Source of the DNA: a virus
Virus record (IMG/VR): IMGVR_UViG_3300017987_000033
DNA: 39,568 nt
Reading direction: 5' to 3' (one strand)
Position 1 is the first letter of the stretch; each line of letters begins with the position of its first letter. Shown here in pieces: positions 8,379-35,996 of the stretch. Under the pieces are notes generated by a model that saw nothing but the letters and a program-made list of their open reading frames with translations, was not told the DNA's origin and did not search any database. The translations under genes and the position numbers were made by a program.

Positions 8379-8711
8379 ATGAATATTAGTTTATTCGAGA
8401 TACGTGATAAACAATGGGAAAAAGTCGCACAAGAACTTCACAAAATAAAAGAACAAAGAAGATACCTTCAAGGTATAGAATTAAAACTAACATCTAAACT
8501 AAAAGCATTCTCTGAGTATAAAAGCTGTAGAAGCAGTAACTTTGTATTCTACTCCATTGAACAAAAAGGAAGCATAGATTATAAATTAATTCCTGAACTT
8601 AAGAATCTAAACCTCGAACAATACAGAAAAAAAGTAAAATACGGATGGCATATAAAAAAAATCACCCCAAAACTTAAAGGCGAACTAGATGGAGAATTGT
8701 TCAACCAGTAA
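8379..8711 (+). CDS. Hypothetical 110-aa protein: N-terminal coiled coil plus a small C-terminal domain
   Basis: It is the first gene of an opposite-strand cassette inside the tail module. The architecture loosely recalls Gam/Gp157-like proteins, but I cannot confirm that. Confidence 0.55.
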   Translation: MNISLFEIRDKQWEKVAQELHKIKEQRRYLQGIELKLTSKLKAFSEYKSCRSSNFVFYSIEQKGSIDYKLIPELKNLNLEQYRKKVKYGWHIKKITPKLKGELDGELFNQ

Positions 8712-8721
8712 ACAAAAAAAA

Positions 8722-8847
8722 ATGACCATAGAAATAGACGCAGAACTACATACAAGATTTAAAACATACGCAGCAAAACATAATATACCAATGTCTACTC
8801 TAATAAAACGACTAATGGCTGCACTACTAAAAAAAGATAACCAATAA
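8722..8847 (+). CDS. Ribbon-helix-helix (CopG/Arc-like) DNA-binding protein, 41 aa
   Basis: Below the ORF-track cutoff. My manual translation is MTIEIDAELHTRFKTYAAKHNIPMSTLIKRLMAALLKKDNQ, which fits the strand-helix-helix pattern of RHH repressors and antitoxins. Confidence 0.5.
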   Translation: MTIEIDAELHTRFKTYAAKHNIPMSTLIKRLMAALLKKDNQ

Positions 8848-8868
8848 AACAGTTCGGTGGGACTAAAA

Positions 8869-9027
8869 ATGGAAAAACTAAACCAAAACCTGTTTAAAGG
8901 AGCAAGCGCTACCATAAAAACACTTGCCCTAATAATCATAAAAGTAATAGAGATAGGATTATTTATTTATTTCCTACCATTTATAGCTATTTATTACATA
9001 CTAAAATCTATATTTGGATCTAATTAA
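8869..9027 (+). CDS. Small membrane protein, 52 aa
   Basis: My manual translation is MEKLNQNLFKGASATIKTLALIIIKVIEIGLFIYFLPFIAIYYILKSIFGSN, with a GGTGGG Shine-Dalgarno-like site 8 nt upstream. Its stop overlaps the stop of the convergent gene 9024..10304. Confidence 0.4.
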   Translation: MEKLNQNLFKGASATIKTLALIIIKVIEIGLFIYFLPFIAIYYILKSIFGSN

Positions 9028-10898: not shown

Positions 10899-11435
10899 CT
10901 AATTTATAATCCACTCTAAAACTATAAACGCTTTATAAGCACTCATGTCCTTACCAACCGTTATATTAACATTTGTAGCGTCCACATTCATAGTAACAAT
11001 GTCCGCAGCTACCGCGCTATAACTTGGGATAGTTAATCCAATAAAACCCGTTGAATCAGTAGCTGTTCCATAAATACGAGTCCATGTAAGTTTAGAATCA
11101 AATGTTATGCCATGAGCGTAAGTAGTAGCTCCAGCAGAAGATCTCATAGCCGGAATATTAATAACCTTACGATAGACTTGTCTTCTTATTGCAGTCGTAC
11201 TACCAGAAGAACTTAAAGAGGTATTAGGAAAGAACGTAGAGCCTGTTACAAACTCTTCTGTATCAAAGATACCAGTCTCTTTATTGTTCAAGCCAATGGC
11301 TATCTGGTTAATATTCTGATAAAGCCTAACTAAAAGCTCTTTAAACTCAGGGCTAGTTACATTTACTTCTTTTAGCCTAGAAGCCTCCCATAACTGAGTA
11401 GTGGGAACAAATGAACCAGCATCTTTATAACTCAT
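10899..11435 (-). CDS. Virion structural protein (hypothetical), 178 aa
   Basis: ORF translationally coupled to 11435..13714, beta-rich sequence. Confidence 0.5.
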   Translation of the reverse strand: MSYKDAGSFVPTTQLWEASRLKEVNVTSPEFKELLVRLYQNINQIAIGLNNKETGIFDTEEFVTGSTFFPNTSLSSSGSTTAIRRQVYRKVINIPAMRSSAGATTYAHGITFDSKLTWTRIYGTATDSTGFIGLTIPSYSAVAADIVTMNVDATNVNITVGKDMSAYKAFIVLEWIIN

Positions 11436-13714
11436 TATCTAACCCTCTCACTTGTAGGCAATGTATAAAGTATCATACCATGCAACGTAAACCCTGAAAG
11501 AGATATAGCTGGATCTTTCATCTGAGACTCTGAATGATGTATCCTTATTTGGACATTCTCACCCTCTGCCTCAAAAGATAAGCTATGCCAGTAACGTTGT
11601 TGAGTGTATTCCAGAGGCTCCAAAAAATATGGCGATAAATCCAACACATTAGGAGAATCTCCAAATAATACACCACTAGCATTCCCTTCATTTATTAATG
11701 GCAAACCTGATGAAGATACATAATAATCAACAGTAACCTCTCCAGCCGTACTACTAGATACATAAAAAGATATTTTAGATAAATGAACATCCCTACCTTG
11801 CTTAATATAGGGATTAAACTCTTTAGACTTTATATCAACCTCAGATACCCTTGAAACAGTTCCACCACCAGTATAAGTCCCCGAGCTATCTATATCTATA
11901 TCAACAGTATCCTCGTCAGTCACATTTATGACCTTATAAATACCATCAGCTAAAACAGCCCCATTAATATTCGTAATATAAACATAATCATCAACCTTTA
12001 AAGTGTGATTTATTATCACTAATCGTGTATAAACAGAACCAGCAGTCAAGTTGGTTATTTGCATGCTTTGAGCATTGCTATTTAAAGTAGGCTCAACTAC
12101 AAAACAAAATCCCTGCTGATTTCCAGCAACAATCTTTTTAGCACCTACCTGATTAACTCCTTCATCCCAAGCAAAATCAGCTTCTTCCCATGTCATATCA
12201 CCCATATCAGCCCAAGTCTTCTCTGGCTGAGTATCAAAATACCCAAAAGTAGTGAATGTATCGTCGTTATATGCCCATGAATGCTCTTTATAGTTATAAA
12301 CAAGCACCTTATTAGGAAAAGTTTCAGAATAGCGACCAGCGTTCGTATCTGGAAAAGCCCAGTACACTAACTCAGTATTAAAATCCCTTATTCCAGATAC
12401 CCTAAATCTTCCATTATTTGAGTATCTTAACTTAAATATATCATCCGGTATCTTCTCATCTATACGGTCAACATTTACCCCATTACAAGAGTGAATACCT
12501 GTTGTTCCGACAGTTAATATATGCTTATCAAAACCCACAGAGGAAAATGTAGACTCACTTCCTATTTCAGTATTTAGTTGCTGCCACACAAAAGGTAAAA
12601 TATGGTTACCATTATAAGCTAACTCCCAGACACTATCTTCAAAGTGAACAATAAGCCTATCCCTTATAAACTCAGCCGAAACTATCGCTTCTTTTGTTGG
12701 CGCATCTATATAACCACCACCAGAAGCTTTATATGTTGCTGCACCACTAATATAAGTCTGATTAGGTTCCAGCCAAGGATGATTAAACGTTCCAGCCGCA
12801 ACCGGAGGAACTATAGGGCTACCGTTATGAGAAAACCTACATCTATTCTGATACTGAGTATTTGTAGTACCAGCGGCATCTTGCTCTATAGTATTGAAAA
12901 GAAGTAAACGATTCCTAAAAGGAACAACTATTTTTGCGGTAAAAACCTTGTTTGTTGCCACATTGGCTGCTGCTGTTATCTCAGGACTAAACGCTGTCCA
13001 TGTAGAAGCACCGTTAAAATAATAAATAGGATCATCTGTGGCACCTACAGCCGCACCAGTCTTATTAGTTACATGAAAGTTAGAAACAAATGTATAAGTC
13101 TCACTTACCGTAGAGCCTGTCCAATTAGTACTCCAAAAGAAATCACTATCACTTCCATGCCAGACAGTTGTTCCGTTTCTTAACCAAGAATTACTAGAAA
13201 ATGAATACACAAAATTAGTATCAAAAGCATAAAGCGGGGTATTAGAAATATCTTTAGTTTCGTAATTAAAATATGCCATTATAGGAGTAGATGGATACCA
13301 GTAAATCGCAGCGGCAGCGCTTGCTCCAGTAAATGTATAAGCCCCAGTTGTAGTATCAAATGTCCCTGTACCAGAACCAGTAGAATAAACAGCACCAGTA
13401 GCCTGATAAACGGTAAAAATATCAGAACCAATAGAAAAAGCCTGCCCTATATTGCCCGTAGACAAAGGTATATTACCAGCAGCTGCTCCGGCACCATCAG
13501 TATCAGTAAGATAAACCCTAACTCTAGAGTTTAGCTGTGCAGTTTCTCCAGTACCGTTGCCCATCAACCGAGACCCAAACCGCTTATTAACTCCACCGTG
13601 CCTTACATAAGCATTCTTTAACTCAGCAAAGGCATTTTCGGGAAGCAACCATGGAGATAAGTCGTTTTGCAGACCAGCTTCAAATGGTGCTATCAAAAAA
13701 CGATCAAATCCCAT
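11435..13714 (-). CDS. Large tail structural protein (nozzle or tubular-protein-B-like candidate), 759 aa
   Basis: Its size and position fit. It contains a small beta-barrel motif, DDYVYITNINGAVLADGIYKVINVTDEDTVDIDIDSSGTY, shared with two other virion proteins. Confidence 0.5.
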   Translation of the reverse strand: MGFDRFLIAPFEAGLQNDLSPWLLPENAFAELKNAYVRHGGVNKRFGSRLMGNGTGETAQLNSRVRVYLTDTDGAGAAAGNIPLSTGNIGQAFSIGSDIFTVYQATGAVYSTGSGTGTFDTTTGAYTFTGASAAAAIYWYPSTPIMAYFNYETKDISNTPLYAFDTNFVYSFSSNSWLRNGTTVWHGSDSDFFWSTNWTGSTVSETYTFVSNFHVTNKTGAAVGATDDPIYYFNGASTWTAFSPEITAAANVATNKVFTAKIVVPFRNRLLLFNTIEQDAAGTTNTQYQNRCRFSHNGSPIVPPVAAGTFNHPWLEPNQTYISGAATYKASGGGYIDAPTKEAIVSAEFIRDRLIVHFEDSVWELAYNGNHILPFVWQQLNTEIGSESTFSSVGFDKHILTVGTTGIHSCNGVNVDRIDEKIPDDIFKLRYSNNGRFRVSGIRDFNTELVYWAFPDTNAGRYSETFPNKVLVYNYKEHSWAYNDDTFTTFGYFDTQPEKTWADMGDMTWEEADFAWDEGVNQVGAKKIVAGNQQGFCFVVEPTLNSNAQSMQITNLTAGSVYTRLVIINHTLKVDDYVYITNINGAVLADGIYKVINVTDEDTVDIDIDSSGTYTGGGTVSRVSEVDIKSKEFNPYIKQGRDVHLSKISFYVSSSTAGEVTVDYYVSSSGLPLINEGNASGVLFGDSPNVLDLSPYFLEPLEYTQQRYWHSLSFEAEGENVQIRIHHSESQMKDPAISLSGFTLHGMILYTLPTSERVR

Positions 13715-14359: not shown

Positions 14360-15364
14360 TCATATCCATGGATTACCATCATTTTTATTACTGCTAAACG
14401 GACCCACCTCAGTCTGATTTGAATATATAGTCGCAGAGCGCTGATCAGATTGCTGAACAATACTTCTTCTTTGTACCAACTCTTCCTGCTTAGTATATTC
14501 AGGCATAATCAACGAAACACTCTCAAGATCCATACGATCTTCAAATACCTTTTTAGCTGCTCCATAAGCTATATACTGCCACCACTGAGCAAGCTCTGGA
14601 GACTGAGCAGAACTTAAAAGCTCTGTAGGCCTTATATAGGCTTCCATCTCTATCTTATAAGGTCGGTCAGGAATAGGTCTTACAGTAAACTTGTTATCGT
14701 AATAAAGAATTAATGTTGGCTTAGATGGAGTAAATGGATAAGTCTGAGCATAAACAGAAGTCTGATCCTTAACAGCAGACAGAAAGGTAAAGGTATAAGC
14801 GCCTGTTTGGTAATTAATGTTACCCACATTAACTTGAGCTGCCGGAGTATTTTCGTACAAATTACCCAAGCCATCGTCATACACAATAAGACCATCATTG
14901 GAAATATCTACAGAACTAAACTGCACACTATTAACCAAGATTGGAACATTGGATAAGGTACCCGAAAAACTAGTTGTGGCTCCATCCCCTGTCCCTATAT
15001 CAACCGAATACGAAGTCTTAGGAAAAGATGCATAAAAATCAGTAGCATTTAACGTTAATGAACTTATAAAACCGTTTACATAGATAGGAGGGTGAAATGT
15101 CGTGTACTTATTTATAAAGTTATACAAAGGTGAATACAAATTAGTCGTATCATTCTCGTAAACATCTTTGTAAGGCTGCGTATAAAAAAAGAAATTTGTT
15201 CTTAATGCCGATATCCTTAAATGCTCAGGAAAATCGCAAAGAACAAAAGTATTTACATAATCGTCTATATTCTGGTCAGATAACTGATTGGCAGACGGGC
15301 TTCTTGTAAGCCTTCTAACCTTTATCCTTATCTGCTCCAACGTAGAAAGTGTACTATCAGACAT
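14360..15364 (-). CDS. Virion structural protein (hypothetical), 334 aa from the MSDSTLSTLEQ start
   Basis: The ATG at 15364 overlaps the upstream stop (ATGTCTGA). The longer 15394 start would overlap the preceding gene by 38 nt. Confidence 0.55.
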   Translation of the reverse strand: MSDSTLSTLEQIRIKVRRLTRSPSANQLSDQNIDDYVNTFVLCDFPEHLRISALRTNFFFYTQPYKDVYENDTTNLYSPLYNFINKYTTFHPPIYVNGFISSLTLNATDFYASFPKTSYSVDIGTGDGATTSFSGTLSNVPILVNSVQFSSVDISNDGLIVYDDGLGNLYENTPAAQVNVGNINYQTGAYTFTFLSAVKDQTSVYAQTYPFTPSKPTLILYYDNKFTVRPIPDRPYKIEMEAYIRPTELLSSAQSPELAQWWQYIAYGAAKKVFEDRMDLESVSLIMPEYTKQEELVQRRSIVQQSDQRSATIYSNQTEVGPFSSNKNDGNPWI

Positions 15365-15740
15365 TAGAACTCCTATTGTTATATGTAGCCCCATCTAATT
15401 TAGTGGCTATTTCTCCAGCGGGAAAAACTTGAGCAAAATTTCTTCTTAAAGTTGTAGGAATAGAAAATGGATCAAAACCACTAGTATCTATATCTATCGT
15501 AAATGTATCATCACTAACTACCGTAATAGTCCCTATAAGCTTATCAGCTTGATACATACCAAAATCTCTTGGGATACGAAGCCTTACTTTCATACCAGTT
15601 GAATAATAATGATTAGGGTCAACAGAAGTAGGATAAGCATCGCTAGTCGTAACTAAAGCTGGATTATCCTGCGTAATCGCTATAATAAGCTTTGTTGCCG
15701 GCACAATGTTAGGACTAGATGGAACTGAAAAAATAGCCAT
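15357..15740 (-). CDS. Small virion protein with an E1-FCCH-like beta-barrel motif, 127 aa
   Basis: Motif GMKVRLRIPRDFGMYQADKLIGTITVVSDDTFTIDIDTSGFDPF. Confidence 0.5.
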   Translation of the reverse strand: MAIFSVPSSPNIVPATKLIIAITQDNPALVTTSDAYPTSVDPNHYYSTGMKVRLRIPRDFGMYQADKLIGTITVVSDDTFTIDIDTSGFDPFSIPTTLRRNFAQVFPAGEIATKLDGATYNNRSSNV

Positions 15741-16210: not shown

Positions 16211-17164
16211 CTAGATGTTAAACGATTTACCAGCCATCCAGTAAATTGTATCACCATTATTTCCACCAGGACCTGTGGTTCCTCCAGCCAAAGTAACGCC
16301 AATCTCAGCATTATTATATGTAGCATCACCTAAAGTTCCTGCGTATGTACTTGTTGCTTCTAATCCAACAGGTGTAACCATAGATGGAGTATAAGCTACC
16401 CCAGCTAATGGATAAGCAAATGCAGTGTACGCAGATGTATCAACACCGATACTAAATGTTGCAGCATCAACAACTGTAACTGTCACCAATTGATCGTGAA
16501 GCTCTACCATTCCACCGCCAGAAGGGATAGTCATTCTAACTTTTTGACCTGTGGTAAAACCATGATCAACTAAAGTTGTAACTACGCCAGGGTTAGCTTG
16601 TGTAATGTTAGCGATATTACGAGATCTTGGATAAAAGATAGGATCGTACTTAACTTTTCTCCAATAACCATTAGCACCGGCTATTACACCAGGAGCTTGT
16701 TGCAACGTATTAGCTAATCTAAAAGATGTATTAGTAACAACAGTATCAATAGAAAAATCTAAACCGTTAATATCGGTATGAGCTGTACCAGTTACACGCA
16801 CAATATCACCATCAGAAAGGCCTGATGTGCTTGCAGTGGAATAAACAGGTTGAGTTGCGTTAGTACCACCTGTAATAGCCACTAATGCTGTTAATGGGTT
16901 TTCCGAGCTATCAAATGATGTAAATGCATTGGCTGAAGTATCAACAGCTACAGTATGGTCTCCTGCAGGATGATATTTCATAACACCTGTAGAACCCATT
17001 CCATATTGCCAAAAATACTCAAAACCATAGCCATTATTTGTAGCTGCAGCTTGTGTAATATTTACAACCTTGATCCAGTCAAAACCAGATCTTAAAACTA
17101 AATTATATGAAAGAGCATCGGTCTTAGTAAAAGAGCCTTGCTGTATGGTTGTTCCAAATGACAT
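16211..17164 (-). CDS. Abundant virion protein candidate (decoration or second capsid-associated protein) with two FCCH-like beta-barrel motifs, 317 aa
   Basis: It lies immediately downstream of the capsid gene. The motifs are GDIVRVTGTAHTDINGLDFSIDTVVTNTSFRL and GQKVRMTIPSGGGMVELHDQLVTVTVVDAATFSIGVDTSAYTAF. Confidence 0.5.
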   Translation of the reverse strand: MSFGTTIQQGSFTKTDALSYNLVLRSGFDWIKVVNITQAAATNNGYGFEYFWQYGMGSTGVMKYHPAGDHTVAVDTSANAFTSFDSSENPLTALVAITGGTNATQPVYSTASTSGLSDGDIVRVTGTAHTDINGLDFSIDTVVTNTSFRLANTLQQAPGVIAGANGYWRKVKYDPIFYPRSRNIANITQANPGVVTTLVDHGFTTGQKVRMTIPSGGGMVELHDQLVTVTVVDAATFSIGVDTSAYTAFAYPLAGVAYTPSMVTPVGLEATSTYAGTLGDATYNNAEIGVTLAGGTTGPGGNNGDTIYWMAGKSFNI

Positions 17165-17177
17165 AAGAATCTCCTTA

Positions 17178-18128
17178 TTAAGCTAAAGTACAAGCTAATC
17201 TTAAAATCCATAGATCATTTAAGATTCTTGAAGCGTGAGACATTTTCCAACCCAAAGTATAATTCTGAGCCAACGGATCATTAAGTTCTGGAGGCCTGTA
17301 AATAAACTTGGCCGTTGCACCGCTTTGTTGTATAGAAGTATAACTTTCCATACCGGTGACAAATACGTTGTAAACGTCAGTTCCAGTTAAAGCTCCAGCT
17401 CCAACTGATTTTGAACCACCAGATGAAGTTAAGAATCTTATACCACCAACAGCACCAATTTCAGAACTTAAAATTCCACCCTGAGATGGATAATTAGCAA
17501 CATCGATATAACCTGATGTATTGCTAATTTCAGTTGATAAGTCGGTATCACACATTCCAAAGAATGCATTTCTTACCGGGCCTGTACCAAATTTATTAGC
17601 ACCTTCAATAGAATCTGAAATGTAAACAGCATCATTACCCCTAAGAGTCTGAACTGCTTGATCTATATCATAACGTGTAATATTACTTGGTATATTTCCG
17701 TTTGTTCCGGCTACACAGTTAACCAATGTTGCAGATGTTGCAAGCATATTTCTGATAAGCTGGTCTTCTGTCTTTCTAAGTGCTACACCAAATCTTATTG
17801 ATAGCTGATTCAATACAGGATCTTGTGAATTTAAGTCAACTTGTTCGTTAACCGACATCCATTGTCCATAATGTTGAATCTTAGCATCAATAAATAATGA
17901 TTCTGGTTGCACAGGAGCTGGGGTCTCACCAGTATTACTTAGTGGTACCAATGCTGTAGGAAGTTCTTCATATCTTTTAAAACGATAATACTCACCAGTT
18001 CTTTTAGCTTTAGTAGCCTTTAACGCAAAAAGACCGTGAATGTTCTTTTGTGTTGGTGTAGCTAAAATCTTATTATCAAAAGCTAATTGAATTGCTGGTG
18101 GCATTGTAGAAGTAGAAACTATTGCCAT
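17178..18128 (-). CDS. Major capsid protein, HK97 fold, N4-gp56-like family
   Basis: Segments YRFKRYEELPTALVPLSNTGETPAP...IDAKIQHYGQWMSVNEQVDLNSQDPVLNQL and the C-terminal NDPLAQNYTLGWKMSHASRILND match my recollection of this capsid family. The gene has its own promoter and a strong AAGGAA ribosome-binding site. Confidence 0.75.
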   Translation of the reverse strand: MAIVSTSTMPPAIQLAFDNKILATPTQKNIHGLFALKATKAKRTGEYYRFKRYEELPTALVPLSNTGETPAPVQPESLFIDAKIQHYGQWMSVNEQVDLNSQDPVLNQLSIRFGVALRKTEDQLIRNMLATSATLVNCVAGTNGNIPSNITRYDIDQAVQTLRGNDAVYISDSIEGANKFGTGPVRNAFFGMCDTDLSTEISNTSGYIDVANYPSQGGILSSEIGAVGGIRFLTSSGGSKSVGAGALTGTDVYNVFVTGMESYTSIQQSGATAKFIYRPPELNDPLAQNYTLGWKMSHASRILNDLWILRLACTLA

Positions 18129-18292
18129 TAGATTTCCTTATTAATTTGTTCTTAATTAAAACAACAACTTCATAAGGTGACGAGCCTGTTAGACTTAAAG
18201 CCTAATACGTCATGGCTTGCGAGGCCGGAGTGAAACACTCTACGCGGTTTGAACTGGCGAAGCTCGGGACTTTAACGTCCTACGCCAAGATT
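18129..18292 (-). promoter_or_regulatory. GC-rich, multi-hairpin 5' leader or candidate cis-regulatory RNA of the capsid gene
   Basis: It is locally GC-rich in an AT-rich genome. Hairpins in minus-sense are GGAC-GUUAAA-GUCC nested in GGCG...CGCC, GAGUG-UUU-CACUC, GGC-CUCGCAA-GCC and UGACG...CGUCA, plus a long-range CGAGCUU/AGGCUCG pairing. Confidence 0.35.
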
Positions 18293-18322
18293 ATTATAGA
18301 GTAATTATGAATGAATATTCAA
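18293..18322 (-). promoter_or_regulatory. Sigma70-like promoter of the capsid operon
   Basis: The minus strand reads TTGAAT, an 18-nt spacer, then TATAAT (-10 at 18298-18293, -35 at 18322-18317). Confidence 0.55.
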
Positions 18323-18392
18323 GAGATATTAAAAGAGGCGCCGCAAGGAAACTTTAGAAACCCTACAACGCCTACAAGAAACGTTAGCAGTA

Positions 18393-18481
18393 TAGCATTG
18401 TGCCAACAAATAAAATAGACCGAAATCATTAAAATATATAAACACTTTGCTTTTAGTTAAAAAAACAACGGCACAATGCTA
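18393..18481. repeat. Perfect 12-bp inverted repeat (tagcattgtgcc / ggcacaatgcta) separated by 65 AT-rich nt
   Basis: Read directly. The right arm starts 3 nt after the stop of gene 18484..19047. Confidence 0.8.
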
Positions 18482-18483
18482 GA

Positions 18484-19047
18484 TCATCTTACATTAAATA
18501 ATTTATTAGCCAAAATCACCGAAAGAAACGGCAACCCACTGTTCCATATTTTATCAGAAGCCGATGATGCCATAAGAGAGATAGTAGCCAGAGGCTTTTC
18601 ATAAAGCATATCCCACATTGCCTGAGTGTGACCCAACTCTTTACTAAGGTGATACTTACCCTCAAGCTCACCTATACTTGAAACTAAAACAGAAAGATTA
18701 TCACTATTACTAAATGTTTTAGATATGACCCTTGAACCAACATTAGCAACAGAATCAATCCCATAATTAAAGATCTTACCCAAAAGCTCACCAACAGGTT
18801 CTGGTGGGAAAAGGTAGCAGTAAAGCATAATTGTTGGTAAACCAACCAATGTAGCCCTAATAGCACCTTTGCGAGACAAAAAGCTATCAAAGCCATCAAC
18901 GATAGCGTTAGCCGATTTCTCAACCTTGTTCATAAGAACATGCTTATCTATAGGCGACATCTTATCAACATCAGCCAAACTAAGCACGTTAAGGTTGGAA
19001 GCCCTAGCATTAAAACTTAAAAATAATAACAAAAGTATCTTTTTCAT
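18484..19047 (-). CDS. Secreted or membrane protein of unknown function (island gene 3), 187 aa
   Basis: N-terminal signal-peptide-like MKKILLLLFLSFNARA and an internal hydrophobic segment LVGLPTIMLYCYLF. Confidence 0.6.
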   Translation of the reverse strand: MKKILLLLFLSFNARASNLNVLSLADVDKMSPIDKHVLMNKVEKSANAIVDGFDSFLSRKGAIRATLVGLPTIMLYCYLFPPEPVGELLGKIFNYGIDSVANVGSRVISKTFSNSDNLSVLVSSIGELEGKYHLSKELGHTQAMWDMLYEKPLATISLMASSASDKIWNSGLPFLSVILANKLFNVR

Positions 19048-19110
19048 GATTCCCCCGCAAGTTAAAAAAGCCTTTATTTCCCTACTAAAAGTATGCCATA
19101 TATAGAAAAT

Positions 19111-19130
19111 AGAGCAAGCCGTCTTGCCCT
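19111..19130 (-). terminator. Hairpin after the Hint-domain gene
   Basis: Minus-sense AGGGCAAG-ACGG-CTTGCTCT followed by ATTTTC. Confidence 0.35.
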
Positions 19131-19153
19131 ACAAAAAAAATAAAAAAGTAAAC

Positions 19154-20845
19154 TTACTTACCTAAATTTTGAGCCCTTTGAAGTAACTTAAAGAAAGCAT
19201 CAATATTCTCTTCATTCTCGTCTAGCTTCTGCTTGGCTATCATCGCCGCTGTACCCAACGCAGAACCAACACCCAACGCAACACCTCCAAGTCCTATTCC
19301 AGCCATCTTGGTCGCATCCCAAGCGTTTTCAAAAAAAGTAGGACCAGACGGAACATGTGACGCTTTTGGTGTTGGCCTAGGAGCAGGAGCAGGAGTAAAT
19401 TCTGGAACATTAACATGAGGAGATGAAGCTGGAACGAATGTAGGCGTAACTCGTGGTACCATACGAGGTCTATCTTGGCTCTTAGGTATACTTGCGTTAG
19501 ACACATCAACAGGAACTTCATTGGTCTGTGTATTATCAGGAATAGGCTCAGGACCCGTTGAAGTAGTATCTGTTTTTTCTTCAGTGACTATCGGCTCGAC
19601 AACAATATCACCCAATGTCTCACAAGGCCCCTGATCAGTTACAGGTGTCGAGGACACAGGTGCCGCTGACTCTTGAGTCGCTGACTCTTGAGCCGAAGAC
19701 AAAACAGCTGCAGCAGTAACCGTTTCAGTTGCATCTAAATTCTTATTAACCTGCTTAATTGTTTCTTCTATAGATGTATTTGTTGCTATATGCTCAGCCT
19801 TCTTTTTAACTTTACTAACTAAATCGGCTTTGCGGTCAGCCTCAGCTTTGTCGGTCTGCTTTTTATCTTCTTCTGCTTTTCTTTTAGCTTCTCTGTCTGT
19901 TGTTTTATCTTTCCTAGAACGTTCTCTTACAGCAGGAGGAGCAAACTTACCAAGTTCACTTGCAATTTGATCAAGTGGATAACCATTTGCCTGCATGACT
20001 TCGAACCTTTCACGCTTTTCAGGAGTATCTGCTAAATAAGACTTAATATTTTGCCTCTCTTCATAACTATGTGTATTTTCAAAGCTATCTGGAAACTGCC
20101 TTGCATAAATATTATCTAGCATTTTATCAAGCTTATTATCATGTAGCTCTTTTTCTAGTTTTGCACCTTTTTCAGCAACTTTCCTTCTAGCCTCTACCCG
20201 TCCTTTATGTGTAAGTAATTTAGTAGCGTCAGCTATACCTGTAGCCGCAGCTGCTGCCACAGTAGCCGTAGCTGCGGCTACTACCGGAGCAGCTTTAACA
20301 ATCTCAGGAATAACTTCTGGAGCCTCTAACACTAACTCAACTACAGCATCATAAACATTGTGCATTAAAAATGCAGTACCATTACTATCAGCCTGAAAGT
20401 AATTATGAACCTTATTTAGAGACAAAATATAAAAACTTATAGGAGGACCTGTAGTCTGGAAGTCAGTTACCGCTTCAATATCATAAGACTTTAACTCATG
20501 ACTCAATATCTTATCCCCAACACTCAACTCTTTTACGCTTATAAAACTATTTTTATTAACACAGAATATTCTTGCCTCTCTAGAACAACACAGAATCCCT
20601 GATGAGGTTTTTATAATGATTACGTTAATGGATTTAAATTTTAAAAGGCTACTTACCTGAATGTTTCTAAACTCACCATTTTTTAGGCAAGCTACATTAT
20701 CAAAAATAGTAAATCTCTCTATAGGCTTAAAACCAGTACTCGAATTTCTGGTAGCTACTAAAGAACCCTTAGGAACACCTGGCTTAGTATAATTAAATAA
20801 TACAAGTAGTAAGAATATACATACAGCAGATATCTTTTTCCACAT
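19154..20845 (-). CDS. Membrane-anchored protein (563 aa) with an N-terminal Hint / bacterial-intein-like domain, an Ala-rich hydrophobic segment, a Lys/Glu-rich coiled region, a Pro/Thr-rich region and a C-terminal TM helix
   Basis: Signal/anchor MWKKISAVCIFLLLVLF. Hint blocks SLVATRNSSTGFKPIERF, ISVKELSVGDKILSH and YDIEAVTDF...FYILSLNKVHNYFQADSNGTAFLMHN. C-terminal GIGLGGVALGVGSALGTAAMIA. Confidence 0.65.
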   Translation of the reverse strand: MWKKISAVCIFLLLVLFNYTKPGVPKGSLVATRNSSTGFKPIERFTIFDNVACLKNGEFRNIQVSSLLKFKSINVIIIKTSSGILCCSREARIFCVNKNSFISVKELSVGDKILSHELKSYDIEAVTDFQTTGPPISFYILSLNKVHNYFQADSNGTAFLMHNVYDAVVELVLEAPEVIPEIVKAAPVVAAATATVAAAAATGIADATKLLTHKGRVEARRKVAEKGAKLEKELHDNKLDKMLDNIYARQFPDSFENTHSYEERQNIKSYLADTPEKRERFEVMQANGYPLDQIASELGKFAPPAVRERSRKDKTTDREAKRKAEEDKKQTDKAEADRKADLVSKVKKKAEHIATNTSIEETIKQVNKNLDATETVTAAAVLSSAQESATQESAAPVSSTPVTDQGPCETLGDIVVEPIVTEEKTDTTSTGPEPIPDNTQTNEVPVDVSNASIPKSQDRPRMVPRVTPTFVPASSPHVNVPEFTPAPAPRPTPKASHVPSGPTFFENAWDATKMAGIGLGGVALGVGSALGTAAMIAKQKLDENEENIDAFFKLLQRAQNLGK

Positions 20846-20917
20846 AGTGAAAACTCCTTTAAGATAAACAGAAAAATAGAACTAAAACTTGTACGATATT
20901 AGCAAGCTGAATAATTT

Positions 20918-21739
20918 TTACAATGTAGAATTACAAAGCTGAATGTAATAATCTAAGTCAGCACACTCAAATTCTGGTTCGCCAAGCAATGCTATTATTA
21001 TTTGTGGAGTCACTGATATTCCTGCACCTATAAGAATTAAAGCGGTCTTTTTCAGCAAAGAAAACATTGTCTGGGCCTTAGTCCTTGGAAGCTTAGAGCT
21101 GTCTATTATAGTAAGCGGAGGAAGCTTACTGTCGATCTCTATTATTTTCTTAAAAAAACATAATCTATTAGATCCTGTGTTTAGTCTATCTAACTCACTC
21201 TCAATCTCTGGAGTTATGCTTTTCCATACAGAAGACAGTAGATCAGCCATAAAAGAAAGACTTCTTGGGTTATGCTCTGGGTGAGTTAACTCAAGATCTT
21301 GCCTAAGCATAGAAGGATCGGAAAACTTTCTTATTCCGGTATATTTATGCAATTCAGGCAAAGTTAACCTAAATTCTTTCTCACTAGGATCTGTTATAGA
21401 AATATTGAACCTATTATTCTTAAACGACATATATCTTACTTTAGGATTAAGTAGCGCAAAAGAAATAGCTCCATAAGGAATAGAGGTTAGATCCATATTC
21501 TCTAAGATCAAGTTACTAACTTCGTATTGCTGAATAAAATGTTTAATATGTTCAAATATCTGCGAAAAACCATCGTCTCCAACAGGCAGATTACTAAGAT
21601 CCAAAGTTTTAGACTCGGGAGAATAATAATTCCTTAAAGAAAACGTATTTAGTGATACATTATGGAGTTCTATGACATGCGGTTGCTCCATAGAAAATAA
21701 GCAAGAGCTGAAAGACAATAGAAGAAGTATTTTTTTCAT
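20918..21739 (-). CDS. Secreted type-I membrane protein with a leucine-rich-repeat-like region (island gene 1), 273 aa from MKKILLLL
   Basis: Signal peptide MKKILLLLSFSSCLFS, the segment LDLSNLPVGDDGFSQIFEHIKHFIQQYEVSNLILENMDLTS, and a C-terminal TM ALILIGAGISVTPQIIIALLG. The start is set at 21739 because the longer ORF would run across a terminator hairpin. Confidence 0.55.
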   Translation of the reverse strand: MKKILLLLSFSSCLFSMEQPHVIELHNVSLNTFSLRNYYSPESKTLDLSNLPVGDDGFSQIFEHIKHFIQQYEVSNLILENMDLTSIPYGAISFALLNPKVRYMSFKNNRFNISITDPSEKEFRLTLPELHKYTGIRKFSDPSMLRQDLELTHPEHNPRSLSFMADLLSSVWKSITPEIESELDRLNTGSNRLCFFKKIIEIDSKLPPLTIIDSSKLPRTKAQTMFSLLKKTALILIGAGISVTPQIIIALLGEPEFECADLDYYIQLCNSTL

Positions 21740-21751
21740 ATTAATCCTAAT

Positions 21752-21785
21752 AAAAAAAAGGCAACCCGCGAGGAACAGGCTGCCC
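21752..21785 (-). terminator. Intrinsic terminator after the scaffold gene
   Basis: Minus-sense GGCAGCC-(11 nt)-GGTTGCC followed by T8, about 42 nt downstream of the stop at 21827. Confidence 0.65.
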
Positions 21786-23793: not shown

Positions 23794-25827
23794 TTATATT
23801 TTTGAAGCAACAGTGGCCTTTGCAACATCACTTGGACCATCTTCGTTAGCCTCAGACTGAGCCTGAAGCAACTTAGATAAAGCCACAAGCTTTTGTAGCT
23901 GATCTATGTCTACATTATCTATTTCCTGCATACCCTTCAACAGATCAAGTAAACCAGCAGCCCTGTCTTTATAAGCCTCAGCCTTACGTTCTTCAGCTAA
24001 CTCTTTATTCTCTTCTATTCGAGATACTCTTTCTAAGCCAAGACCCTTATCAGCTGTTGCTCTTGCGTGCGCCAAATCAGTACGAGCCTGTATTTCTGCC
24101 ATCTGAACTTGAGCTTGTTGCTGTTGCATTTGCTGTTCTTGCTGCTGTTGTTGTTGAACGGTTTTAATAAGATCTGATTTATTTTGTAATGTTACTGCCT
24201 CAATTAAACTTTCATCAGGTATAGGAACACCAATCTCACGAAGCTTAATATACTGAGCAAACTGCATTTGTTTTTGAGTTGTAGTATTAAGTCCCTCTTC
24301 AACAGCACAGTCATACTTACCGAAAGCCTTATTATAAAACTGAGGCAACGGCTCTTCGTTTAATATGCGCTTAACTTTACCCGGCATAAAATTGTTTTGA
24401 ATAACACCTAAAAGTTTAGAGCCTAAAAGTTTAAGTGCGTAATCAGCGTTACTAAAAATAGGTTGCAATGTTGTCAAACCAGCAGACTGTCTTAACATCG
24501 CAAGTACACCGGCTTTGTCATCTACTGCTGAGCCTAACAACTCTTCAGAAACACCTGAAATACTGTTAATCTCATCACCCATTGCCCTAGATACTTCCAA
24601 GGTTGATGGAGGTATACTTCCCGGCTGTATCTGCTGTAAGTCGGTCATTTGAGCACTAGACTTAACAACCAATGACTTACCTTGACCGGTTTTAAATACA
24701 TCCATCGGATTAACAAGAGCGCCCTCTTTATATATCCAGCCAGAAGTAACTTGAGATTCAAGCATGTCGAGCTCTATAGCCTTACGCCTGTTATACAAGA
24801 ACTGAGCATCTATTAACCCACGAACAACACCTTGTATCCTCCATGTGTAATCAGTAATTTGAGGATTAAAGTAACATAAAACAGGAACAAACGGATAAGA
24901 ATCAATACCTAAAGGATTAGGTCCATCGTACATAATCTTACCCTGCAGAACTATGGTAAGTCTTACTGTTGGAATATCTTGCTCTACCACCGAAACCTGA
25001 GGATACATCTTTAAAAACTTCTCAAGACCTTCGGGGTCGTTCTTGTCCCATTCCATAGACTCACCTGTCTGCTTATCAACAAGTAATTTTTGAGACCTAA
25101 AAGAACGGTAATAATATTCGTCGTAAGACATAAGATTATTATTCGCGGCATCAAACGTCTCCGGAAGGTAATTAAATTTGCCATCCTTAGAATTTGACGT
25201 AGAAAGAGACATGATAATATCTTTCTTGTCTGGCAAATAAGACAAAGCTTCGCTGCGAGTTATATAAGTCCTCTTCCATATAAAGTTACAGTCAGATAAA
25301 TCTTTTTTCTTAAAGAAAGGGTCAATAATAAAGGTGTTATAAGGGCAATTTTCGACAACAACATCTCCAGAAACAGGATCTGCCCTATAATCCATTGTTA
25401 CCTGAATTAGTGATATACCACCAACAACAGAATCATGAAAAGAATCAGAAAAAGTTTCGAGTATCCCAGAACCTCTATCAAGCCACATCAAGATCTTACT
25501 AAACTGATCCGCTGTTTCCTGGTCAGCATTTTCTACAGGAATAGCAATTATAGACTTTCTATTTTTACATTGATGACCATGAATCATGTTAACGGTAGTT
25601 CTAATATGGTTCAGACTTAATAGATTACGCCTTGAAGCAGGAACATTATTATAAAGCTCTGACCAAAGATTAGGATCTCCAGCTTCAGCCCTAGAATCTC
25701 TATCAGCCATCCCCCACATAGTCTCATTAATAGATATTACCCTAGTATAACTATCCTCCATAACCTCTAAACGAGCTCTATCTTCAGGATCTCTAACCTC
25801 ATAAGGAACCTCTGGAAATATTGCCAT
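23794..25827 (-). CDS. Portal protein, 677 aa
   Basis: It directly follows the large terminase and has a typical size. It has a Gln-rich and charged C-terminal tail (QQQQQEQQMQQQQAQVQ). Confidence 0.7.
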   Translation of the reverse strand: MAIFPEVPYEVRDPEDRARLEVMEDSYTRVISINETMWGMADRDSRAEAGDPNLWSELYNNVPASRRNLLSLNHIRTTVNMIHGHQCKNRKSIIAIPVENADQETADQFSKILMWLDRGSGILETFSDSFHDSVVGGISLIQVTMDYRADPVSGDVVVENCPYNTFIIDPFFKKKDLSDCNFIWKRTYITRSEALSYLPDKKDIIMSLSTSNSKDGKFNYLPETFDAANNNLMSYDEYYYRSFRSQKLLVDKQTGESMEWDKNDPEGLEKFLKMYPQVSVVEQDIPTVRLTIVLQGKIMYDGPNPLGIDSYPFVPVLCYFNPQITDYTWRIQGVVRGLIDAQFLYNRRKAIELDMLESQVTSGWIYKEGALVNPMDVFKTGQGKSLVVKSSAQMTDLQQIQPGSIPPSTLEVSRAMGDEINSISGVSEELLGSAVDDKAGVLAMLRQSAGLTTLQPIFSNADYALKLLGSKLLGVIQNNFMPGKVKRILNEEPLPQFYNKAFGKYDCAVEEGLNTTTQKQMQFAQYIKLREIGVPIPDESLIEAVTLQNKSDLIKTVQQQQQQEQQMQQQQAQVQMAEIQARTDLAHARATADKGLGLERVSRIEENKELAEERKAEAYKDRAAGLLDLLKGMQEIDNVDIDQLQKLVALSKLLQAQSEANEDGPSDVAKATVASKI

Positions 25828-25982: not shown

Positions 25983-28541
25983 CTATCTAAAAACGTCTGG
26001 CAACCCCGAGGACGATCCGTACATTGCCTGGTTGTATAACTCGTCAACATCTTCTTGTGTAGCCTCATCTCGCGACGAAGGAACGCTAATTGCAAGCAAA
26101 CGTGCACAATCTGAAAAATGAGAACTGCTATCATGAAAAGGCTTATCCGCATAAACTTTCCTCTCATTATCATACTCCCTCCTGTAAGACTCAAGAGCCT
26201 TAATTAACTTGTCACAGTTACGCTCATCGATCCAAACCCTAGGAAGCAAAGCACGAACGGCTTCTATGCCGTCTGATATAGGCAACTTGGGCGCAACATG
26301 GAAATTAATTCCAAGCTGTCTGGCTCTGTCTATTCTCTTTACAGCTCCTCCAGCCCATTCTCTAACCTGTATGTCATGCGGCGCCCAGTGTTTACCGTAT
26401 GCATAGTCCTTGCTGTGAATAATTTTAGCATAATGATCTAACCCGAGATCAATATTAGTATACGAATCTATAATCGATACCGACTGTCCCTTAATCTGGA
26501 ACCAGATTATACAAGTTGCATCAGATACCCCCAAATCCCAAGCTGTATGCACCTTAAAAGCAGGATCATAAGGAACGTTGGTTATCTGACCTTTAAGCCT
26601 AAGATTATTCATTATCTTAGAGTAATATGACCCCTCCACACCCATATCAAAACTACAATAATACTCTTGTTGCACTAAGTCCTCAGACATCACACCTTCA
26701 TCTATTTCTCGCTGAATAACTTCTTTTGATATGTGTTTAGTATCATCGCAGGTCAACCTATAAGCAAACCAATACTTAGGATTCTGTTTAGCTATTTTCC
26801 ATAAATCATAAAAACTATTGTGCCCAAATGGCGTATTGTGGCTTATGAATCCATTACTAAAAAAAGAATGCGTTTCAGGAATAACAAAATCAAAGACTTC
26901 TGACTCTGAATTAGTTATTGATACAATCCTTGAATAAAACAACTTCTCTTTAAGCAGTGATTTTAAATATTCATTACCTGGATGCTTTAAATAAATAGAT
27001 TCTAAAGTACGCCTTCTAATTTTTGAAGGATTCGTAACGTTAAACTTAAATATATCTGCATTTACCGGGTATACATTGCCCGACCCTGATCGTATCTTTT
27101 CTGAAATATACCTAGCAACCTTTTGCTTTCTTTTTAGCCTAAACCCTATTTCAGAAAAGAATTTGTAAGCAAAGTAACCCTCAATTTCTAAAATAAATAT
27201 AACGCTTGAAGCTTTTACCTTTTTAGTTGGCGGATTAGTTCTCTTGCTAACCAAAGAAACTATTCCAAAATTAAGAAGCACCACCTGAAGATCAAGAACA
27301 AACCCCTCACAAGCTGAGGCGAACGTTATATGACCCCTCTTACGTTTTTTATGGTTGGTATTACTATTACCATCACCATCAAATAATCCTTGTAGAAACG
27401 CAGCCAATTGCTCTTTCGTACATTCAAATAATTTTTCCGGAAAGGTTTTATTCTTAGCGCCGCGTTTAAAACCAAGGTATTCAAGAAAATTTACTAGGTT
27501 GGTAGCCGATAACACATGATGAATACCATCTTTTTGAGTCCTAAAACCAAACTTATTTATAAAACTTACAATCTCGTGGTCTTTCTTTTTTGTAATAGTT
27601 ACCTTACTAGAGTCGAAACTTCCATCAGCATGAATTAAGCCTAAAAGATAAAAATAATCTTTATTAAGGTCTAAATCAGATACATTAGTTCGTATTCTAT
27701 AGTCATCATTATTAACGAAATCACTTATATCTAACCCAGATCCAAAAACGTTCTGACCGTACTGAATCGGTAACAAGTCGCCAAGCTTAAGGTCTCTTGA
27801 CTTAATCCACTCTGACCCATTCCATAATGGATGGACCTTAGTACACTCAATCTCAAATCCAGAAGCTAACTTTATCTTTAAAGTCTCTTGCTTTCCTCCA
27901 TAGTAAAAATCGGTAGCATTGTTAAATCCATTAAGACCAAAAATAGGTGAATTAAACTTGGTGTACTCTTTTCTTGAATCGGATAACTTACTAATCCTTT
28001 TAAGACCTTTTTCTGAAATTACTAATGTATTTGGCGCAACACATGATATAAATAAACACCACCCTCCGTTTGCTGCCAAGATAGGTGATATAAACTTGTA
28101 CGCATTTGGATCCGCCCTTGAGTATTCAGAAAATATAACTGCGTATGGATTAGTTCCAACAAGCCTGTTGTAAGAATCAGAACCAGCAAGCTGCAATATA
28201 GATCCATTAAAAAAAGTTATCTTCATCTCAGAAGAGTTAAGGCTAACTATAAGCTCTTCAGGTATAAAATCTAAAAGCCTCTTTCCATCTATGGTTATAC
28301 AATCCCATATTACACGTCGAGCCTGAGAAAATGTGGGAAGAAGGTAGTAGATTATACAGCGCTTACGAAGAGCCTGACGAACAGCAATGTTAAAAGCAGC
28401 AATATCCTTCCCGGCGCGGCGCGGCATCACTGCAATAATCTTCTTCATCCCTTTATTCTCTATAGCATCTACAATGGGTAACTGATAGGAACGCGGCTTA
28501 AACCTATCAAGCTTTACTATTTTCTTCTCTTTTTCTGCCAA
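25983..28541 (-). CDS. terL: Terminase large subunit precursor (852 aa) containing an intein. The spliced product would be 449 aa.
   Basis: N-terminal ATPase-type motif VMPRRAGKDIAAFN. The C-terminal nuclease-type region includes HTAWDLGVSDATCIIW and PHD. A TTG start sits 5 nt after a GAGGAG ribosome-binding site. Confidence 0.9.
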   Translation of the reverse strand: MAEKEKKIVKLDRFKPRSYQLPIVDAIENKGMKKIIAVMPRRAGKDIAAFNIAVRQALRKRCIIYYLLPTFSQARRVIWDCITIDGKRLLDFIPEELIVSLNSSEMKITFFNGSILQLAGSDSYNRLVGTNPYAVIFSEYSRADPNAYKFISPILAANGGWCLFISCVAPNTLVISEKGLKRISKLSDSRKEYTKFNSPIFGLNGFNNATDFYYGGKQETLKIKLASGFEIECTKVHPLWNGSEWIKSRDLKLGDLLPIQYGQNVFGSGLDISDFVNNDDYRIRTNVSDLDLNKDYFYLLGLIHADGSFDSSKVTITKKKDHEIVSFINKFGFRTQKDGIHHVLSATNLVNFLEYLGFKRGAKNKTFPEKLFECTKEQLAAFLQGLFDGDGNSNTNHKKRKRGHITFASACEGFVLDLQVVLLNFGIVSLVSKRTNPPTKKVKASSVIFILEIEGYFAYKFFSEIGFRLKRKQKVARYISEKIRSGSGNVYPVNADIFKFNVTNPSKIRRRTLESIYLKHPGNEYLKSLLKEKLFYSRIVSITNSESEVFDFVIPETHSFFSNGFISHNTPFGHNSFYDLWKIAKQNPKYWFAYRLTCDDTKHISKEVIQREIDEGVMSEDLVQQEYYCSFDMGVEGSYYSKIMNNLRLKGQITNVPYDPAFKVHTAWDLGVSDATCIIWFQIKGQSVSIIDSYTNIDLGLDHYAKIIHSKDYAYGKHWAPHDIQVREWAGGAVKRIDRARQLGINFHVAPKLPISDGIEAVRALLPRVWIDERNCDKLIKALESYRREYDNERKVYADKPFHDSSSHFSDCARLLAISVPSSRDEATQEDVDELYNQAMYGSSSGLPDVFR
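26835..28043 (-). mobile_element. Intein (403 aa) with a LAGLIDADG homing-endonuclease domain inside terL
   Basis: Block A CVAPNTLVISEKG (Cys1 codon at 28043-28041) and block B ECTKVHPLW. LAGLIDADG motifs LLGLIHADGSF and FLQGLFDGDGNS. Blocks F/G VFDFVIPETHSFFSNGFISHN, followed by Thr+1 (Asn codon at 26837-26835). Confidence 0.85.
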
Positions 28542-34645: not shown

Positions 34646-34688
34646 GAGTAATAAAGGCGATAAACCATAAAAACGAGAAAGGGAGATA

Positions 34689-34967: not shown

Positions 34968-34983
34968 TACCTAAGGAGAGTTG

Positions 34984-35993: not shown

Positions 35994-35996
35994 AGA

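Follow-up and report, generated by a model that had tools for sequence, protein, structure and literature searches.

The cassette between the scaffold and capsid genes

The window analysed here is the whole 39,568-nt stretch of the IMG/VR virus record IMGVR_UViG_3300017987_000033, and its subject is a three-gene island located between the putative head scaffold gene and the major capsid protein (MCP) gene. Open reading frame (ORF) calls confirmed three minus-strand genes in this slot, termed A, B and C, which are co-directional with their neighbours, as described in an earlier note on this DNA (Table 1). All three predicted proteins carry Sec-type N-termini plus further hydrophobic segments, in agreement with the signal-peptide-like or anchor-like starts noticed there. 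The solid part of our interpretation, drawn from sequence comparisons, is that (A)-B-C represents a mobile, self-contained cassette of predicted envelope-targeted proteins, with B-C as its core and A as an optional member.

The window is a phage genome encoding a P22-like portal (23794-25827), an intein-bearing large terminase (TerL), an HK97-type MCP and tail-fibre genes. Its ends share an exact direct repeat of 123 nt (1-123 = 39446-39568), so that the contig represents the whole genome, assembled as a circle of ~39.4 kb. Loci from related phages are designated by L and a number in the following.

Table 1 Features of the cassette and of its borders in the window.
Feature	Position (nt)	Strand	Basis or remark
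Putative head scaffold gene, 276 aa	21827..22657	-	Left border of the slot; position; kept in all relatives
Intrinsic terminator, 11-bp stem + U8	21751..21785	-	Directly 3' of the scaffold gene; abuts the ribosome-binding site of A
Gene A, 273 aa	20918..21739	-	ATG start; TTG extension reaches 21787
A, leucine-rich repeat, ribonuclease-inhibitor type, residues 40-115	21395..21622	-	Family profile against PDB
A, C-terminal transmembrane anchor, residues 231-255	20975..21049	-	Kyte-Doolittle 2.24 over 19 residues; kept in all 3 homologues
Gene B, 563 aa	19154..20845	-	ORF
B, bacterial-intein-like (Hint) domain, residues 23-163	20357..20779	-	PDB profile matches, alignments
B, Ala-rich hydrophobic segment, putative second transmembrane segment (TM2), residues 178-207	20225..20314	-	Hydropathy and conservation; followed by the basic cluster THKGRVEARRK
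B, low-complexity region, residues 208-511	19313..20224	-	Composition windows; K/R/D/E-rich 208-360, S/T/P-rich 361-511
B, glycine-zipper transmembrane segment, residues 512-538, GIGLGGVALGVGSALGTAAMIA	19232..19312	-	Kept in L004 and L117
B-C hairpin	19109..19132	-	dG -12.6, z -3.1; weak U tail
Gene C, 187 aa	18484..19047	-	ORF
12-bp perfect inverted repeat, 65-nt spacer	18393..18404 / 18470..18481	-	Directly after C; dG -24.4, z -3.2
Sigma-70-like motif, TTGAAT-N18-TATAAT	18293..18322	-	~165 nt upstream of the MCP start
MCP gene	17178..18128	-	Right border of the slot; PF25209 and phrog_1357, E=3e-38

Gene B contains a bacterial-intein-like domain without its N-terminal nucleophile

The product of gene B starts with MWKKISAVCIFLLLVLF and is built from a signal or anchor sequence, a bacterial-intein-like (BIL)/Hint domain, a hydrophobic segment, a charged region, an S/T/P-rich region, a Gly-zipper transmembrane (TM) segment and a short tail. 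Homologues of B are present in L004 (42% identity), L005, L006 and L117 (52-56%), and a B-like protein was found in L035/L036. The Hint assignment, which had been made from the sequence of B alone, was borne out once these homologues were added: a profile of five sequences matched the BIL2 structures (6tmm/6y75; PMC8616854) at E=4.2e-7 and 2lwy, a structure titled 'bacterial intein-like domain', at E=5.5e-6. The Pfam family PT-HINT (PF07591) remained below its gathering score of 27.7 bits, with 16.6 bits for B, 19.1 bits for the N-terminal part of B and 25.2 bits for the B-like protein of L035.

At the C-terminal end of the domain, His162-Asn163 is invariant in the five sequences, and the following residue is Val, Asn or Glu, so that no +1 nucleophile is present. 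BILs of type A have been described to end in His-Asn without a +1 nucleophile and to yield mainly cleavage products (PMC4031507). At the N-terminal end, the position of Cys1 is occupied by Gly23 in the context GVPKGS, as compared with the pattern C-x-x-x-G-T, and the block B motif TxxH is replaced by C/T-S-R-E-A. As the N-terminal nucleophile is missing, neither splicing nor N-terminal cleavage should be possible. Judged from these motifs, B would be capable of a single C-terminal cleavage at most. The idea that the Hint domain was copied from the TerL intein of this genome was rejected, the hhalign probability being 0.2%. An architecture in which a signal peptide is fused directly to a nucleophile-less BIL that is followed by membrane segments was not found described in the literature.

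The Hint domain is conserved at ~70% among the homologues, whereas the part after it is variable. The B-like protein of L035 has an unambiguous TM segment and the basic cluster HHRRRKK at the place of TM2 and the basic cluster of B. This arrangement suggests that the long region of B lies in the cytoplasm instead of spanning the periplasm, and for this reason a role of B as a periplasm-spanning spanin or as a class-I-fusion-like protein was down-weighted. Residues 208-511 vary in length and sequence in a gapped alignment of the homologues, whose whole proteins range from 486 to 634 aa. Of the coiled-coil and Pro-rich regions initially ascribed to B, the S/T/P-rich stretch was confirmed, but the coiled-coil signal is weak, the K/R/D/E-rich part being probably helical with a poor heptad pattern. 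The C-terminal two-thirds of B consist of variable, low-complexity sequence and TM segments and matched no toxin family in Pfam, PHROGs, PADLOC or NCBIfam.

Genes C and A encode families without annotation

Protein C starts with MKKILLLLFLSFNARAS; it has a signal peptide with the cleavage motif ARA↓S and continues with a hydrophobic helix (residues 61-81), a conserved core GE.EGKY..KE.G..A.W and the hydrophobic C-terminal sequence GLPFLSVILANK. A HMMER search over 1.84 billion representative sequences collected 39 clusters at E<1e-3 as the C family. Nearly all of its members begin with MKK and a signal peptide, and they have in common a helix LTxKGAIKTLxxLxPxxxLYCYFF, a core GxxxGxYxIxKEIGxxxAFW and a hydrophobic C-terminus. 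Searches of C against Pfam, PHROGs, PADLOC, NCBIfam and the PDB returned nothing. An AlphaFold2 model of C computed from a three-sequence alignment was unusable (pLDDT 41.6).

Protein A, with the N-terminus MKKILLLLSFSSCLFS, consists of a Sec signal peptide, a leucine-rich repeat (LRR) of the ribonuclease-inhibitor (RI) type, a conserved helical region, a C-terminal TM segment and a short tail with conserved Cys residues. The LRR-like character attributed to A at the outset could be substantiated, as a family profile matched the LRR of NLRP5 in the PDB at E=4e-8 over the residues listed in Table 1; the Pfam LRR families gave no match to A at E<=0.1. Two homologues, P0007 and P0008, are ~53% identical to A. 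A lipobox is not conserved, the context of Cys13 in A not being kept in the homologues. No match to A was obtained in Pfam, PHROGs, PADLOC or NCBIfam. The AlphaFold2 model of A, likewise computed from three sequences, was unusable as well (pLDDT 49.3; only the LRR part reached ~70), and Foldseek with this model returned noise only.

Among 5.8 billion clustered proteins, one homologue of B and two each of A and C were found, and the ORFs are conserved in five to six phage genomes. Using tblastn against INPHARED, none of A, B, C and one further C-family member found a match. As judged from these searches, the three protein families appear to be unannotated and absent from cultured phages.

The slot is a recurrent site for cargo in this phage lineage

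MCP alignments were used to gather relatives of the window from collections of genomes and metagenomes and from IMG/VR. In IMG/VR, searches with narrow alignments of A, B, C and MCP came back empty, and broader alignments were needed. The relatives form a large, uncultivated, podovirus-like group represented by at least 582 IMG/VR contigs. The distance between scaffold and MCP genes was then counted in the 87 loci that hold both genes. It is at most 400 nt in 53 loci, 401-1000 nt in 19, 1001-2000 nt in 6 and more than 2 kb in the remaining 9. The adjacency of the two genes that the earlier note had presupposed is therefore seen at 53 of the 87 junctions, but the others carry wider gaps.

The cargo of these wider junctions is diverse. 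An M15-type peptidase of 112-135 aa was found in the slot of 12 loci (PF13539 at E=4e-5, just under the cut-off; PHROG endolysin families at E=2e-8). Small membrane proteins or lipoproteins come after this M15 endolysin in L016 and L049 and plausibly make up a lysis cassette together with it. A GroES-GroEL pair is located between scaffold and MCP genes in L057 (7794-9690), L110 (3432-5407) and L067 (4825-6753), in the first two of these downstream of an M15 endolysin. Secreted proteins with Gly/Ala-rich hydrophobic tails occupy the slot in L102 and L112, a 140-aa secreted protein in L052 and L066, and an SPFH protein, a lipoprotein and an HNH endonuclease in L105. C occurs alone in the slot of four loci (L032, L033, L034 and L094), while B-C or A-B-C is found there only in the subclade of the window. 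Hence the location, which had been considered unusual, is not so for the lineage: the junction is a recurrent cargo hotspot, of which A-B-C appears from these comparisons to be one rare load.

The core B-C pair is found at more than one genomic site

Within the subclade, L004 carries scaffold, B, C and MCP genes and lacks A. In L005 the scaffold gene is followed by A and B, and L007, from the same sample, carries C and MCP; the two overlap by only 15 nt and were not relied on as one molecule. Outside the slot, A and B follow a homologue of the window ORF p110 in L006, p110 being the last gene of the late tail-fibre operon in the window. In L117, an IMG/VR contig of 39.6 kb that also lacks A, B and C have a small ORF on one side and SSB-ERF on the other, and they are encoded on the opposite strand from the terminase-portal-scaffold operon. 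Directly upstream of B in L117 lies a homologue of the 110-aa ORF of the window that is described further below. C is followed by SSB and ERF in L027, and it stands behind a helix-turn-helix (HTH) gene beside ERF in L028 and L031. In L035/L036, the B-like gene follows the tail-fibre genes and a C-family gene is located ~4 kb away. This B-like protein combines a signal peptide, PT-HINT (E=2e-5), a TM segment, a basic cluster and a charged tail. The region downstream of its gene in L035 (12583-14057, minus strand) contains a 105-aa ORF and genes for a DUF6496 protein (E=2e-11) and for a pair of small proteins whose signals resemble lipoboxes (FAGC, FSAC), with ERF coming next; it could be a lysis-type gene set that ends the late operon.

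B adjoins C in the window, in L004 and in L117, i.e., at two different genomic sites, and wherever it could be checked, including L035/L036, a B-type gene is accompanied by a C-family gene in the same genome. C-family genes without adjacent B are found in L028, L031-L034 and L094; by analogy they resemble orphan immunity genes or stand-alone membrane genes. Between the window and L004, identities amount to 42% for B, 48% for C, 40% for the scaffold protein and 57% for MCP. B and C have thus diverged about as much as the scaffold between the two, which argues that the island is not a recent one-off insertion. The C family and M15 were never seen together in the segments examined, whose coverage is partial, so that their exclusivity is not statistically secure.

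The presence of the cassette after tail-fibre genes in L006 and beside SSB/ERF in L117 indicates that it is mobile and not a component of head assembly. Distant relatives with MCPs of 42-52% identity lack A-B-C. The proposal that the three genes are accessory, lineage-restricted and envelope-targeted was upheld by these observations. The least supported alternative, namely that they encode ordinary head-assembly or virion proteins for decoration, ejection or piloting, is disfavoured and hardly credible: the genes do lie between scaffold and capsid genes and are kept in the nearest relatives, but Sec signal peptides would divert the products from the cytoplasm, ~100 related loci with the same structural genes are devoid of them, and the same genes occur outside the head module in L006 and L117.

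Transcription signals and base composition

The hairpin with a T8 run that had been noticed after the scaffold gene is a convincing intrinsic terminator (hairpin and U8 at 21759-21785), with a dG of -18.8 kcal/mol, a z score of -3.7 and none of 200 shuffled sequences folding as well. At the equivalent place L004 also has a hairpin. The hairpin following the Hint gene is real, though weaker as a terminator than that of the scaffold gene, and the B-C spacer of L117 contains a long inverted repeat as seen by eye. Likewise, the 12-bp inverted repeat reported after C is present and is weaker as a terminator. The sigma-70-like motif that had been put forward as a promoter of the capsid gene exists in the sequence, but the counts of promoter-like and terminator-like elements in the region do not exceed shuffled expectation. 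L004 has TTGTAA-N18-TATAAT ~320 nt upstream of its MCP gene.

No promoter-like sites were found before A, B or C. Since only ~20 nt separate the terminator from the ATG of A, this stretch leaves no room for a promoter belonging to the island, and its transcription probably depends on read-through past the scaffold terminator. Bacteroidota-type promoters (TAnnTTTG) were considered and discarded, as they showed no intergenic enrichment (4 of 43 sites, compared with 16% intergenic sequence). The base composition of the island (GC 0.34-0.39; GC at third codon positions, GC3, 0.25-0.33) lies within the range of the other genes of the genome. The classic moron architecture attributed to the island consequently holds in part: a strong upstream terminator and presence or absence among syntenic relatives speak for it, but a promoter of its own and a distinct GC or GC3 are missing, and no integrase was found.

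Neighbouring structural genes and other features of the genome

The scaffold label derives from the position of the gene and from one family member matching phrog_8865 'head scaffolding' at E=8e-8. The nearest MCP of a cultured phage is only 28.6% identical to that of the window, and megablast of 10 kb against INPHARED returned no matching known phage. No ORF of the complete genome matches endolysin, holin or spanin families in Pfam or PHROGs, and an M15 hidden Markov model found no match within the window. Among ORFs of at least 90 aa, only A, B, C and p92 are credible membrane proteins; a TM-like segment, N-terminal or internal, is also present in two smaller ORFs (56 and 88 aa). No integrase was found among those ORFs of the genome that were scanned with Pfam; small HTH ORFs are present. 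No tRNAs were found. Neither the window nor seven loci yielded an Rfam match at gathering score, and the MCP leader gave no credible one.

At 34130-36263 (plus strand), a 92-aa protein whose N-terminus has a TM segment lies between two ERF-family paralogues (171 and 248 aa), and an 88-aa protein that also has an N-terminal TM segment follows. A small type-II membrane protein after ERF is encoded in L031 and L035, too. The small TM proteins near ERF in the window are alternative holin-like candidates. At 8379-9027 (plus strand), a small module on the opposite strand lies within the tail-gene operon and comprises the 110-aa ORF mentioned above, a 52-aa ribbon-helix-helix-like ORF and a 56-aa TM ORF. 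The '917-aa' ORF at 36648-39401 wraps the circular junction and continues to 916 (minus strand), which gives a tail-fibre-like product of ~1237 aa.

In many relatives, insertions of 220-1100 nt interrupt the MCP gene, whereas that of the window is continuous. Such insertions were located in L010 (2553-2958), L011 (10321-10621), L014 (2740-3245), L015 (4288-5389), L016 (9473-10001 and 10138-10581), L017 (2257-2479), L024 (6214-7001) and L032 (2853-3629). They have conserved blocks in common, e.g., AAATCTTCTCTAATAGACTTGGAA and GACTAA...GCGATAGTC, and found nothing in Rfam at gathering score; from their sequences they look like group I introns. A related element is also present in the MCP leader of L014. 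MCP leaders measure 355-570 nt (window 18129-18483, minus strand; L004 12232-12800; L007 1171-1568) and carry one to three copies of conserved GNRA-type hairpin motifs CTCGCAAG. The leader was considered as a structured RNA and this was rejected, as that of the window folds no better than shuffled sequences (z -0.65).

The TerL gene (25983-28541, minus strand) encodes a product of 852 aa with an intein of ~400 aa at about residues 167-564 that contains a LAGLIDADG homing endonuclease (PF14890, PF14528). In L011 and L013 the intein is missing and the flanking parts of TerL are contiguous. TerL of L117 aligns to that of the window over its whole length, so that the intein is apparently common to both; TerL of L004 has a seemingly different insertion of ~300 aa near residue 809. 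An E1_FCCH-like domain (PF16190) is present in the 317-aa protein encoded after MCP (16211-17164, minus strand) and, by tblastn overlap, in structural proteins of 127 aa (15357-15740, minus strand) and 759 aa (11435-13714, minus strand); its recurrence suggests a common decoration or adhesin-type module.

Phage contigs L008-L018 were binned in metagenome-assembled genomes (MAGs) of, among others, Babeliales, Parachlamydiaceae, Saccharibacteria, Bacteroidota, Thermotoga, Bathyarchaeia and Nitrososphaeria. Binning over such different phyla is evident mis-binning, and the MAG labels therefore do not reveal the host.

Discussion

We consider it most likely that the cassette functions at the envelope of the host. 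More specifically, we tentatively favour an interpretation in which B would be an effector that processes itself in the membrane, with C as its membrane partner and A as an optional adaptor bearing the LRR. It is drawn from the combination of a Hint domain with a variable part behind it, a small membrane gene downstream that is also found alone, and the company of a C-family gene in each genome with a B-type gene that could be checked. In the proposed mechanism, the Sec pathway would insert B into the membrane such that the BIL/Hint domain is placed in the periplasm. Cyclization of Asn163 would then cut B once, between N163 and V164, and free the Hint domain from a membrane-embedded fragment composed of the Ala-rich TM segment, the charged/Pro-rich region and the Gly-zipper TM segment. 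This fragment would be the active, membrane-perturbing moiety, C may be its cognate partner, acting as an inhibitor or an immunity-type regulator, and A might hold an LRR protein-binding module at the periplasmic face. As a result, the cytoplasmic membrane of the host would be damaged in a controlled way or brought under control. The cassette may thereby serve lysis and egress or, alternatively, act against competitors in the manner of toxin/immunity systems.

Lysis or egress is an attractive role, given that the complete genome has no recognizable endolysin, holin or spanin and that the slot holds an endolysin in sister phages. The location of B-C among early genes in L117, and of C in several further phages, argues against a purely lytic role and keeps exclusion and competitor killing in play. 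A more far-reaching proposal, which we regard as rather unlikely, is that B founds a family of phage membrane effectors in which the nucleophile-stripped periplasmic BIL constitutes a one-shot self-cleaving switch, its cut releasing or activating the glycine-zipper fragment in the membrane. B, with C and A, would then accomplish endolysin-independent lysis or egress or the killing of competitors, the M15 cassette having been displaced from the slot in the subclade of the window.

Several observations weigh against the effector/partner interpretation. The His of block B is missing in the Hint domain, and Pro at position -1 of the window protein speaks against a signal-peptidase cut exactly at the N-terminus of the domain. 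The variable part of B is of low complexity and may be a mere spacer. Instead of co-varying with the tail of B, C is ~50% conserved. In library scans, none of the three proteins showed a recognizable toxin, holin, endolysin or spanin domain, and neither A nor C gave a usable AlphaFold2 model. B-C or C beside early or recombination genes in L117, L027, L028 and L031 fits lysis poorly, and the lack of co-occurrence of the C family with M15 speaks against C as a holin for M15.

The early-looking surroundings of C-family genes, directly after an HTH gene or beside SSB/ERF (L027, L028, L031, L035 and L117), also speak for a non-lethal function, in which the three exported proteins, located in the inner membrane or periplasm, would keep other phages from injecting their DNA or from using their receptors, or would shield progeny from adsorption to debris. 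Such superinfection exclusion or envelope masking, which we consider possible but doubtful, is in line with three Sec-targeted membrane or periplasmic proteins, with genes that are dispensable across the lineage and shift between sites, and with the LRR as a protein-binding module. It offers, however, no reason for a predicted self-cleaving BIL or for a charged/Pro-rich region of 300 residues; known systems are usually single small proteins, the genes of the window sit in a late operon behind a terminator, and no similarity to known exclusion or defence proteins was found in PADLOC, PHROGs or NCBIfam, the PADLOC matches being at chance level (E>=0.01).

We deem it unlikely that the island is a strict lysis cassette in disguise, with C or the C-terminal domain of A acting as a muralytic enzyme of new fold, the other proteins as holin or spanin, and the M15 cassette replaced. 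In 12 relatives the slot does house an M15 endolysin, either by itself or with small membrane proteins, the complete genome has no recognizable endolysin, and endolysins with signal peptides exist, such as Lys44 of the Oenococcus phage fOg44. Yet C is predicted to be all-helical with two hydrophobic helices and no enzyme motif, and it also occurs in early-gene contexts. Moreover, no lipobox or spanin architecture is present, and the basic cluster after TM2 would place the long region of B in the cytoplasm.

Effectors directed at the eukaryotic host of an intracellular bacterium, comparable to the module of Wolbachia phage WO, had been suggested in the earlier note. The best match of A is indeed an LRR of the eukaryotic NLR type, and 2 of the 11 relatives from the genome collection were binned with lineages of amoeba symbionts (Babeliales, Parachlamydiaceae). 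Binning of phage contigs is unreliable, the other 9 are distributed over unrelated phyla including archaea, and one related sample (SRR12601635) comes from lake Solenoe, an open saline lake. The C-terminal TM segment would retain A in the bacterial membrane, and neither ankyrin, latrotoxin or other domains typical of such modules nor a secretion-system signal were identified. With the RI-type LRR as its one remaining argument, we consider this explanation very unlikely.

Should the proposed action on the membrane prove correct, this would be the first case of a phage using Hint/BIL autoproteolysis to control an envelope effector. The cassette would then also offer a possible explanation of how a tailed phage leaves its host when its complete genome of ~39 kb has no recognizable endolysin, holin or spanin. 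The location in itself is not exceptional, being a feature of the lineage. In the hypervariable slot, endolysins, chaperonins and secreted proteins replace one another, and three families lacking annotation move as a unit between this slot and two other sites.

Comparison with known systems

Of the described systems, type A BILs and PT-HINT (PF07591) toxins resemble B in that a secreted protein has a Hint fold ending in His-Asn with no +1 nucleophile. B departs from type A BILs by Gly at position 1, by the lack of an N-terminal nucleophile and by the lack of TxxH. In contact-dependent growth inhibition (CDI) toxins, PT-HINT marks the junction before a variable C-terminal toxin, and a small immunity ORF is situated immediately downstream (PMC4725963). 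The cassette parallels this organization in the variable part of B after the Hint domain and in the small ORF C, which comes next and is also found alone. In contrast to polymorphic toxin and CDI systems, only a Sec signal precedes the Hint domain of B, in place of RHS, filamentous haemagglutinin, two-partner secretion (TPS) or type VI or type VII secretion system (T6SS, T7SS) trafficking parts. Its C-terminus combines low complexity and TM segments and has no recognizable toxin domain, the PT-HINT gathering score is missed, and the cassette is carried by a lytic-looking phage.

Holin/antiholin pairs such as T of phage T4 with RI likewise comprise a membrane protein with a periplasmic domain and a partner with a signal peptide. 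Similar to the lysis cassettes of M15 and small membrane proteins in L016 and L049, A-B-C occupies the slot that houses the endolysin in relatives, in a genome otherwise devoid of recognizable lysis genes. Neither sequence nor architecture of A, B or C matches holin, antiholin, spanin or endolysin families, and B differs from known holins by its far larger size and by the early-gene context of B-C in L117. With the superinfection-exclusion proteins Imm and Sp of T4, SieA of P22 and Llp of T5, the cassette has in common that it is phage-encoded, exported and dispensable, with the C family often located by early genes; it differs from them by the lack of homology and by the involvement of three proteins, including a predicted self-cleaving domain. 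The eukaryotic association module of Wolbachia phage WO shares with it a eukaryote-like repeat domain, here the RI-type LRR. That module spans tens of kb, whereas the cassette measures ~3.3 kb, has none of the characteristic domains and encodes a membrane-anchored A.

Finally, the cassette behaves like phage morons and cargo hotspots in its presence or absence at a fixed junction, in the hairpins and terminators alongside it and in not being needed for virion assembly. It is distinguished from morons in that there is neither a promoter of its own before A nor a compositional difference, and no integrase or sign of lysogeny was found; furthermore, the slot carries an essential-type endolysin in sister phages, and the cassette is of old standing in its subclade. 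Hotspots of accessory cargo in structural operons are already known, and among them the island is a candidate for an undescribed, envelope-acting phage system.

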